A stretch of DNA of 64,000 nucleotides from Botryllus schlosseri. Taxonomy: Eukaryota. This document shows positions 3,602 to 4,550 of this stretch, piece after piece (the first letter of the stretch is position 1; each line of letters starts with the position of its first letter). Location: positions 38,256,001 to 38,320,000 of the forward strand of contig CM119372.1 in the NCBI GenBank assembly GCA_051294905.1, written 5' to 3'. The notes beneath the pieces were generated by a model. That model was not told the origin of the DNA and did not search any database. It was given only the letters and a program-made list of their open reading frames with translations. The position numbers were made by a program, and so were the translations under genes.

Positions 3602-4550
3602 CTAAGTCTCTTGTATGACTGTGGGTGGGATAGGGCCTTCGCACAACACCACTTCTTGTACATTTGATTGCAGCAATACGAGTCCCTTATTCCTTAGATC
3701 TGCTGCTTTCAGGCAAATTACCACATTCCGCCTTTTGCTTTTCTTCGTTAGCGTTTTGCTCAAATGAATGAATCTCCTGTTCATCCGTTCAATGCCCGCG
3801 GACATTATCTGTCTTGCATTGTTTTCGGTCGTCATGTGGTACAACACCTCGTTACCTTCATATTTACAGTATGGAGGGGGCGTCCCTTTTGTATGTCCAT
3901 GGGCGGCCGCCAGACCATATTTCGAGGTTATTGCTCTGTCGCACCTTTGCATGACACTCTGTACTTCGTCCATTTCAATTTGTCCCCCAGTTTTCTTCTG
4001 GAAGACGCCACAAATATCATCCCAGGGATGGAACCCGTTCACCGAGTTGTCGCAAAGTTCATGTCGACAGTGATACATCAGCATCTGCTGTATTTTTTCC
4101 GGTCGGGGTCTTTTCTGTCGGTACGAAACGCTCTTTTTCTTGGGAATCGTCGCCCAAACATGTGGATCATCTTCTCCCGCAGCCATTTCCATCCAATAAG
4201 ATCGAGACAATCCATCTGACGTAAATACCTGCATCGTACTTAAATGAATTACCTCTTTTATTTGGAATCCTGCTAGATGATTTAGCCACCTCTGAATTAG
4301 GGGTTTTGGGCTTGGATTTTTCGCTTTGTCCGTCATTCTTTTGAGGAGCCCAAAAACCCCAGTATTATCAGTGATTATTGTAAAGGGTAAGGCTCTCAAC
4401 ATTGATTGCCATTTTTCCACCGAATCCTTTAAGGCTTTCAATTCCTTTGTACATGGATCATAAGCCTTTGCCGTTGGAGTCGCCCACTTTTGACTGTAGT
4501 AGGCAATTGGGTAAACCTTTTCGAAAGGCGGATTGCACCCTTTTCCGTCT
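3602..4550 (-). CDS. pol: Pol C-terminal part: RNase H C-half plus Tpt1/KptA-like RNA 2'-phosphotransferase domain (joined to upstream pol by a frameshift at ~4520-4550)
   Basis: Frame upstream of the called ORF reads KVYPIAYYSQKW..AYDPCTKELKALKDSVEKW..FTIITDN..RW..SDGLSR (RNase H). It is followed by YHCRH..NGF..AAHGHT..LYHMT..GIERMNRRFIHLS..VVLCEGPIPP (Tpt1-like). Confidence 0.85.

Follow-up and report, generated by a model that had tools for sequence, protein, structure and literature searches.

A 64,000-nucleotide stretch of the Botryllus schlosseri genome (GenBank assembly GCA_051294905.1, contig CM119372.1, positions 38,256,001 to 38,320,000; hereafter the window) contains a retrovirus-like polymerase (Pol) gene whose C-terminus, behind protease, reverse transcriptase (RT) and ribonuclease H (RNase H), carries what is almost certainly, to judge from its sequence, modelled fold and catalytic residues, a member of the Tpt1/KptA family of RNA 2'-phosphotransferases. 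This gag-pol-Tpt1 block very probably represents the 3'-terminal gene set of large Merlin-type units with GG...CC inverted ends and one or two IS1595/Merlin DDE transposase genes. The copy in the window is a repeated mobile unit of 37,141 bp (3360 to 40500), delimited by copy-to-copy homology, its ends and its count of open reading frames (ORFs); like all the features described below, it is read on the minus strand. Our leading explanation, to which we give about an even chance of being correct, is that Tpt1 would act as an accessory nucleic-acid-processing enzyme of the RT complex, with integration carried out by the transposase of the unit. Retroelement polymerases are known to acquire a few accessory enzymes; what appears to be new here is the use of Tpt1 as such a domain, together with the pairing of retrovirus-like genes with a Merlin transposase. 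An earlier note on this DNA, made from the letters alone, had called the fusion unfamiliar in a retroviral-type Pol; in open-access text and literature listings we found neither a Pol-Tpt1 fusion nor an RT-bearing Merlin element, an earlier description elsewhere being possible.

The Tpt1 domain and the polymerase that carries it

The domain (3635 to 4093) lies in a 279-aa ORF (3602 to 4441), the first 59 residues of which match the C-terminal half of an RT-type RNase H in Pfam and are followed by the linker WMEMAAGEDDPHVW. The Pfam profile PF01885 (PTS_2-RNA) matches residues 117-269 of this ORF with an E-value of 4.6e-11 (43.5 bits against a cut-off of 26), and the match spans positions 6-177 of the 177 in the profile. 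Ten of the 12 rows retrieved from the PDB by sequence at E <= 1 were Tpt1/KptA chains, headed by 7kw8 (E 7.9e-7) and 8tfi (E 1.3e-6). An AlphaFold2 model, built from an input alignment of 30 rows, reached a mean predicted local distance difference test score (pLDDT) of 94.6 and a predicted template modelling score (pTM) of 0.86. When compared with the PDB by Foldseek, all 21 matches with E <= 0.001 were Tpt1/KptA entries. Most of them were full-length, with template modelling (TM) scores of 0.74-0.81, the best KptA/Tpt1 structures aligning at TM 0.78-0.81 with root-mean-square deviations of 2.6-2.9 Å; three matches had scores of only 0.41-0.52 (one apo form, one ligand complex and one nuclear magnetic resonance model). 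KptA with bound 5'-phospho-ADP-ribosylated DNA was among the top structural matches. The match of the domain is far beyond chance, and these results bear out both the presence of Tpt1-like motifs at the Pol C-terminus and the motif map that the earlier note had drawn.

Aligned with free-standing Tpt1 enzymes, the ORF presents all four residues of what we take to be the catalytic tetrad of the family, Arg-His-Arg-Arg, at R126, H127, R169 and R222 (codons 4064-4066, 4061-4063, 3935-3937 and 3776-3778, respectively), positions that come from that alignment. Across 30 fused and free sequences, three of the tetrad columns (R22, H23 and R118 of the alignment A2) are kept in at least 90% of the rows and the remaining one, R65, is invariant, while conservation of the GH, H-x-T and H-L motifs is complete or no lower than 90%. 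In the alignment with free-standing enzymes, with which the GH(T/S), LYH(M/G)T and R-x-(F/H)-(I/V)-H-L motifs also align, GH and another two His residues never vary. The domain shares with the Tpt1/KptA/TRPT1 enzymes (PF01885) their two-lobe fold (TM 0.80), the tetrad, the coverage of the whole profile and the GH(S/T), LYH.T and R.H(V/I)HL motifs. By contrast, those enzymes are free-standing whereas this one is fused to the C-terminus of a protease-RT-RNase H protein, and the fused domains have a shortened N-lobe with a conserved H-x-R-H-x-x-C...H-P-W pattern and lack about 9 residues after the HLS motif. What emerges is an intact-looking domain of the Tpt1/KptA type, predicted to be a nicotinamide adenine dinucleotide (NAD+)-dependent, phosphate-directed ADP-ribosyl/phosphotransferase.

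The neighbouring Pol ORF (4438 to 7074, 878 aa) codes for an aspartic protease (LADTGS), the RT (about 4900-5424; RVT_1, E 1.5e-17) and half of RNase H, the N-terminal one (RT_RNaseH_2, E 1.5e-10). It is preceded by a gag-like ORF (7014 to 9833, 939 aa), whose single CCHC zinc knuckle scores 20.5 bits with zf-CCHC (E 5e-4) and narrowly misses the Pfam cut-off of 20.8, and, just upstream of gag, by a small ORF (9842 to 10111, 89 aa) with one hydrophobic helix that is kept in sister copies. Pol is in the -1 frame relative to gag, and their overlap of 61 nt includes a slippery heptamer, A AAA AAC (7029 to 7035), whose register is that of the gag frame. In many sister copies the entire Pol is a single open frame of 1205 aa, which implies that the intended product would be Gag and then, by frameshifting, a protease-RT-RNase H-Tpt1 protein.

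A CCHC Gag, a DTG protease, RVT_1 with an RT-type RNase H and a -1 gag-pol frameshift site are all shared with Metaviridae, Retroviridae and Caulimoviridae. The order protease-RT-RNase H without integrase would fit Caulimoviridae, and the best PDB match of the RT is the cauliflower mosaic virus enzyme (entry 8r0s, E 7.6e-15), followed by foamy-virus Pol and then Ty3; the RT-RNase H of a relative, P0006, recovers only Ty3/gypsy-type Pols, at 22-27% identity. In contrast with the Pols of Metaviridae and Retroviridae, the one described here comes without long terminal repeats (LTRs) and without integrase, carries the additional Tpt1 and is embedded in a unit bounded by terminal inverted repeats. 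Pfam searches detected no integrase (rve) or tyrosine recombinase in any of the 21 sense ORFs of at least 150 aa, and no rve integrase in six diverged sister Pols. LTRs, split repeats and inverted repeats were not found around gag-pol (the longest direct repeat in window 1-16000 measures 34 nt), and no LTRs flank two other lineages either. The block resembles a retroviral or pararetroviral Pol but, as far as its sequence tells, fails two defining features of LTR elements, namely the LTRs and the integrase. The idea of a circular-RNA or retrozyme-like element was also considered: there were 0 Rfam matches at gathering level in the window, and one chance-level match only at E <= 5 in 1-12500. 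No tRNA genes were found in the window sequence, and no tandem repeats scoring at least 100 in 3000-41000.

The fusion is not a peculiarity of this copy. A scan of 1.84 billion representative proteins gave only 37 matches at E <= 0.001; Pfam was run on 18 of them, and five unrelated ones (P0004, P0006, P0009, P0022 and P0034) combine an RT-type RNase H with PTS_2-RNA, three of the five having RVT_1 as well. In the B. schlosseri genome itself (495 Mb) there are at least 134 matches, falling into identity classes of about 90, 77, 60, 55, 48 and 37%, and many of them sit in open frames of 1152-1324 aa. Six diverged lineages, at 32-61% identity, each have one open ORF (1067-1324 aa) with RVT_1, RNase H and PTS_2-RNA above cut-off, one of them also with a retroviral protease domain and a G-patch. 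Both findings that the earlier note had named as fatal to its proposal, the lack of a significant profile or structural match and the absence of the domain from related RT elements, thus turned out the other way. In a maximum-likelihood tree, a branch with 100/99 support parts 17 fused or fragmentary domains from 18 free enzymes and 3 host genes. The canonical Tpt1 genes of the host score 156-180 bits with PF01885 and the fused domains 34-50 bits, which points to an old acquisition and not to a recent capture. Among 10 close copies, the Tpt1 codons have a median dN/dS (ratio of nonsynonymous to synonymous rates) of 0.18 at a median dS of 0.22 (44 pairs). The fused domain is old, monophyletic and under purifying selection, and its codons portray it as selectively maintained, not decaying. 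As for its distribution, a word-index search for longer fused relatives gave none, none was confirmed in viral contigs and metagenome contigs, and a search with a profile made up mostly of free Tpt1 enzymes yielded nothing but ordinary Tpt1 (715 at E <= 1e-5), which is uninformative on taxonomic spread.

Two of the protein records deserve separate mention. P0038 (1122 aa), from an outside source, has a complete APE-type endonuclease (Exo_endo_phos, E 1.9e-18) after Tpt1, giving the order protease-RT-RNase H-Tpt1-endonuclease in one ORF; an endonuclease of their own, as in non-LTR retrotransposons, is present only in this outside relative. P0005 (198 aa), a public tunicate record annotated as 'probable RNA 2'-phosphotransferase', begins with the RNase H-Tpt1 linker motif and groups in the Pol-fused clade. 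This record probably represents part of a retroelement Pol rather than a host enzyme, so that at least one public tunicate annotation of this kind can be flagged as a likely Pol fragment.

The 37-kb unit, its ends and its spliced-leader copy

Homology to ten sister copies runs past gag upstream, through window 24219, and the copies found with window 24000-43999 as query all start sharply at 40500. The 5' terminal inverted repeat (40477 to 40500), where homology begins sharply in five other copies, starts GGTACTTGTG; the 3' repeat (3360 to 3383) ends CACTAGTTCC, 242 nt past the Tpt1 stop codon, and the end is the same in 10 of 10 copies. Read as its reverse complement, GGAACTAGTG, the 3' end matches the 5' end at 16 of the first 24 bases, a level that 9 of 200,000 random 24-mers from the window equal. 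The sequence TATTTTCC is repeated directly outside both ends as a target-site duplication (5' copy, 40501 to 40508; 3' copy, 3352 to 3359), and duplications of 8 bp flank all four full copies, three exactly and one at 7 of 8 positions (TATTTTCC, GTATCTTT, CTTCTTTT and GATATTT(C/T)). The first gene of the unit (39265 to 40191) codes for an IS1595/Merlin-type DDE transposase (PF12762, E 1.5e-10, 41.7 bits against a cut-off of 27), and a second one lies at 17628 to 18575 (E 2e-17, 64.1 bits, same cut-off).

The hallmarks given for Merlin elements are a terminal GG, inverted repeats of at least 24 bp, 8-9-bp duplications and a DDE_Tnp_IS1595 domain (PMC8101967). By this structural definition the 37-kb unit is a Merlin element: it shares the DDE_Tnp_IS1595 transposase (by Pfam domain), the conserved GG at the 5' terminus, inverted repeats that are imperfect and some 24 bp long, and 8-bp duplications. 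It departs from the simple layout of one transposase between inverted repeats described for the superfamily (PMC8101967) in its 37 kb and its two transposase genes, and also in carrying gag, pol with RT, envelope-like genes and host-like cargo, almost all of them sharing a strand (the minus strand has 21 of the 22 ORFs of at least 150 aa). Unlike non-LTR retrotransposons, it has no poly(A) or simple-repeat 3' end, and its duplications are constant at 8 bp. Truncation of the 5' side by target-primed reverse transcription was considered for two copies (L012 and L017), but internal deletion or rearrangement explains them better; L012 runs straight into the transposase gene.

The association between Tpt1-Pol and transposase extends over the genome, which has 141 PF12762 matches. 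Of 71 Tpt1 matches, taken for an open frame of at least about 600 aa or for membership of the close family, 50 have a DDE gene on the same strand no more than 60 kb upstream, at spacings that are lineage-specific (about 14 and 38 kb; 23-24 kb; 16-19 kb); six more have a DDE gene about 1 kb downstream, and five an opposite-strand one within 60 kb. Conversely, 81 of the 118 strongest DDE matches lie at most 60 kb from a Tpt1 match. In two other lineages copy homology ends 300-500 nt past Tpt1, at ...AATAGATCC and ...TATGTGTTCC (TCC ends), and on the upstream side it reaches well beyond gag.

The unit carries, about 550 nt upstream of the gag start, an exact copy of the 25-nt spliced-leader exon of the host lineage (10384 to 10408), recognized from the pile-up of RNA reads and from its identity to the published leader: read from 10408 to 10384, it is the 'Chordata 1' exon in Table 1 of PMC3795323. 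When four RNA-seq runs of the same species label were mapped on window 3000-22999, a spike of 2-211, depending on the run, was confined to 10377-10408, nearly all of its reads running into adaptor-like sequence on one side and into diverse sequences on the other. The same 24-25-mer is found 450-600 nt upstream of gag in every copy examined that covers the region, in three deep lineages (besides the window, loci L011-L013, L016, L018-L020, L048, L052, L058, L060, L062 and L064). The genome contains 393 dispersed leader copies with at most one mismatch, against 0 for a reversed control; 38 of the first 100 listed lie upstream of Tpt1-Pol, and on contigs C1-C5 a same-strand leader copy lies 2.8-8.3 kb upstream of 38 of the 58 Tpt1 matches. 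The copy is perfectly conserved while its flanks have diverged, which argues for selection on the leader or for its repeated renewal through trans-spliced RNA. It may descend from a trans-spliced mRNA that was reverse-transcribed, or it may be a leader-gene module that was co-opted. We ruled out that it marks the 5' end of an independently moving retro-unit, since in three lineages the copies are still homologous on its upstream side. Three leader copies that stand in tandem in the genome bear no resemblance to the flanks of the element, and where read joints had pointed to another leader-like spot, near 21085, the sequence proved to be AT-rich and of low complexity, with no leader.

Some variation between copies was seen around this region. 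Upstream of the leader copy (10441-11146) there are units of about 250 nt that vary in number and sequence between copies, and in another lineage (C3:28.68 Mb) a 237-nt unit upstream of Pol is repeated eight times in tandem. Short derivative copies (for example C1:19042444, C3:6141101, C3:18168221 and C5:17542646) have open Tpt1 frames of only 108 or 162 aa and a leader copy that lies closer upstream, at about 4.0-4.3 kb and not at 6.3-6.9 kb, which suggests a recurrent internally deleted form.

What the fused domain may do

Removal of 2'-phosphates from primer or genomic RNA and capping of ends with ADP-ribose, both put forward in the earlier note, are reasonable candidate functions for a domain with these predicted properties. 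According to our leading explanation, the DDE transposase and not Tpt1 would insert the DNA form of the unit, the integrase function being supplied in trans, and Tpt1 would be carried in the Gag-Pol particle alongside RT and RNase H, acting on nucleic-acid phosphates. The reaction that we prefer is the canonical two-step one, by which Tpt1 would use NAD+ to remove 2'-phosphates from packaged template RNA or primer; such 2'-phosphates would be marks left by the repair of cleaved RNA and would stall RT. Two points make us prefer it to capping: the tetrad is complete, and the reaction is common to the whole family, every Tpt1 enzyme so far tested being able to take internal 2'-phosphates off RNA with NAD+ (PMC6182162). 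Even so, we rate this mechanism as somewhat less probable than an even chance. The proposal follows the logic already advanced for KptA in the replicase polyproteins of RNA viruses. KptA is embedded in RNA-virus polyproteins, including that of a nidovirus of the tunicate Botrylloides leachii, where it has been read as an enzyme of RNA-end processing or repair (PMC9503650). As in that nidovirus, in picorna-like viruses, in sawfly nucleopolyhedroviruses and in giant viruses, the domain lies in or beside the replicase; the difference is that those hosts are RNA viruses or large DNA viruses, whereas here it belongs to a Pol of the reverse-transcribing type. In that survey the term 'reverse transcriptase' does not occur, and retroviruses come up for the 2H domain alone (PMC9503650). 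In BFVD, eight matches had E <= 0.001 (8.6e-11 to 5.8e-4), none of them from a reverse-transcribing virus.

Several observations weigh against this explanation. The copy in the window has a frameshift inside RNase H, which splits RNase H over two frames and puts Tpt1 out of frame with RT; the earlier note was right that Tpt1 follows RNase H in the same frame, and that frame is not the one of the RT in this copy. RNA depth over gag-pol is very sparse, at 0-1.4 per bin in the four runs, and transposition of the entire unit as DNA accounts for every copy that we examined, with no sign of RT in its copying. Of the 71 Tpt1 matches sampled for linkage, 21 have no same-strand DDE gene upstream within 60 kb (six of these being the ones with a DDE gene about 1 kb downstream), and the most divergent lineage, at 34%, has neither DDE gene nor leader copy nearby. 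One family member, P0007, has Gln instead of the first Arg of the tetrad. The host keeps its own canonical Tpt1 genes, so that a private copy needs a reason, such as action inside the particle. Finally, fungal-type tRNA ligase is a known source of junction 2'-phosphates, and no domains of such a ligase (PF08302, PF09511) were found in the genome by an exon-by-exon search that is weak, control genomes being silent too.

This last result would fit better with the main alternative, another use of the same active site, which we consider unlikely, though not negligibly so: Tpt1 may act as a one-step ADP-ribosyltransferase on the 5'-phosphate ends of cDNA or of RNase H products, shielding cDNA or RNA ends from exonucleases, ligation and sensing and leaving 3'-OH ends free for the DDE transposase. 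RNase H makes 5'-phosphate ends, and Tpt1 directly follows RNase H in Pol; capping would also suit a transposase that needs only 3'-OH ends, and no ligase making 2'-phosphates was detected by the search just described. A subset of Tpt1 enzymes does cap the 5'-phosphate ends of RNA or DNA with ADP-ribose (PMC6182162), and the KptA structure with 5'-phospho-ADP-ribosylated DNA is among the top structural matches. These structural matches, however, do not tell the two reactions apart, and only some Tpt1 enzymes cap while all tested ones perform the canonical reaction (PMC6182162). The complete R-H-R-R tetrad also tells against capping alone, as an enzyme restricted to the first step might not need all four residues.

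Equally unlikely in our view is a reading in which the gag-pol-Tpt1 block was captured as a retroelement and is carried along by a Merlin DNA transposon that moves purely as DNA. RT and Tpt1 would then serve the retro-module or an interaction with the host, not the copying of the unit, and Tpt1 may be an enzyme of counter-defence or host manipulation, like the inhibitor-of-apoptosis protein (IAP) and the E2 ubiquitin-conjugating enzyme that the unit also carries. The compared copies are homologous from end to end, their 8-bp duplications fit cut-and-paste or DNA-level transposition, and the homology upstream of the leader copy in three lineages gives no case of the retro-block moving alone; low RNA depth and the host-directed look of the other cargo (IAP, E2 and a leucine-rich-repeat protein) point the same way. 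Against such a passive role, the position and orientation of the block at the 3' end are constant even where Tpt1 is only 37-48% identical (within a range of 37-92%). The long ORFs are open and dN/dS is 0.18, whereas a passenger should have decayed or vanished in some lineages. The placement of 21 of 22 ORFs on one strand is likewise unusual for the cargo of a DNA transposon and typical of expression or copying through one RNA.

Least probable by far is the suggestion of the earlier note taken at its word, a free-standing integrase-less retrotransposon in which Tpt1 would do the integrase's job of inserting cDNA: Tpt1 does hold the place in Pol normally held by integrase, and the APE-type endonuclease of P0038 hints that some members handle target DNA themselves, but Tpt1 chemistry concerns phosphate monoesters and has, to our knowledge, no strand-transfer activity, LTRs, a poly(A) end and duplications of variable length are all lacking, and what duplicates is a 37-kb unit with transposase genes and Merlin hallmarks, so that the end structure largely refutes it. 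The replacement of integrase by Tpt1 thus stands as a matter of position and falls as a matter of function, because the unit has its own IS1595/Merlin DDE transposases, 8-bp duplications and no LTRs.

Seen as a whole, the unit has its closest analogues in Teratorn and in giant retroelements such as Terminons and Burro. Teratorn is a herpesvirus fused with a piggyBac transposon, integrating via a cut-and-paste DDE transposase and inverted ends; Terminons are giant RT-bearing elements with a Penelope-like RT and telomeric ends; and Burro combines apoptosis and ubiquitination domains with LTRs and an integrase-type gypsy backbone (PMC6431247). That review makes no mention of Merlin. The present unit differs from Teratorn in that its viral partner is retrovirus-like (gag, pol, env-like) and its transposase Merlin-type. 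One could go further and see in these units a new class of reverse-transcribing virus-like element of a tunicate-type host, with retrovirus-style genes (gag, protease-RT-RNase H and the two envelope-like glycoproteins), Merlin ends and DDE transposase, and Tpt1 as an essential replication enzyme. Such an element would have given up LTRs and retroviral integrase and would be a retroviral counterpart of Teratorn; it would be expressed, and possibly copied, via an RNA with the host spliced leader, Tpt1 cleaning or capping ends in the particle. We advance this only tentatively, as less probable than not.

A Tpt1 domain conserved and selected in Pol would imply that 2'- or 5'-phosphate chemistry matters for reverse transcription in these hosts. 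It also makes testable a long-standing puzzle, the role of Tpt1 in animals without the fungal tRNA-ligase pathway. The combination of retrovirus-like genes with a Merlin transposase, if true, would be a new route to integration for virus-like elements and bears on the exchange of integrases and transposases at the origin of LTR elements.

Other genes and sequences of the unit

Two large glycoproteins are encoded between the first transposase gene and the middle of the unit, neither with a Pfam family match. The first, of 848 aa (36616 to 39162), is a type-I membrane glycoprotein resembling class-I fusion proteins, with a signal peptide, a C-terminal membrane anchor, 12 N-x-S/T sites and an RRKR motif at residue 492 followed by a fusion-peptide-like hydrophobic stretch; its language-model neighbours are viral spike/HA/F proteins, at 0.90, a similarity to be taken as a lead only. 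The second, of 1132 aa (33130 to 36528), is also a type-I membrane glycoprotein with signal peptide and C-terminal anchor, and its weak neighbours by the same approach, rhabdovirus G and herpesvirus gB at 0.80, are likewise no more than leads.

The host-like cargo consists of the E2 ubiquitin-conjugating enzyme (12562 to 13056; UQ_con, E 3e-47), a BIR/BIR/BIR-RING IAP split over two adjacent ORFs (14746 to 16428; BIR, E 4e-36, and RING) and the leucine-rich-repeat protein (19250 to 20299; LRR_8, E 9e-62). These genes are intron-free and recall the apoptosis and ubiquitination domains of the giant planarian element Burro. The E2 gene apart, the region 11350-14599 is a run of ORFs of 150-175 aa that match no family and are open in sister copies. 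Several of them have a seemingly recurring motif (...YYFDMF.KYYE.., ..FYFW.FKERYE.., ..VFFDSFEKKYEH..), as if they were paralogous modules. Another part of the unit, of about 6.8 kb (25591-32400), has no ORF of at least 90 aa on either strand and no tandem repeats. Outside the unit, the flanks (1-3359 and 40509-64000) have no ORFs of at least 150 aa, and GC skew flips sign near 44000.

Elsewhere in the host genome, at least nine canonical Tpt1 matches are clustered within about 116 kb (C3:19313502-19429401), two of them complete, at 156-180 bits. Tpt1 is normally a single-copy gene, and the cluster represents an unusual expansion in this host.

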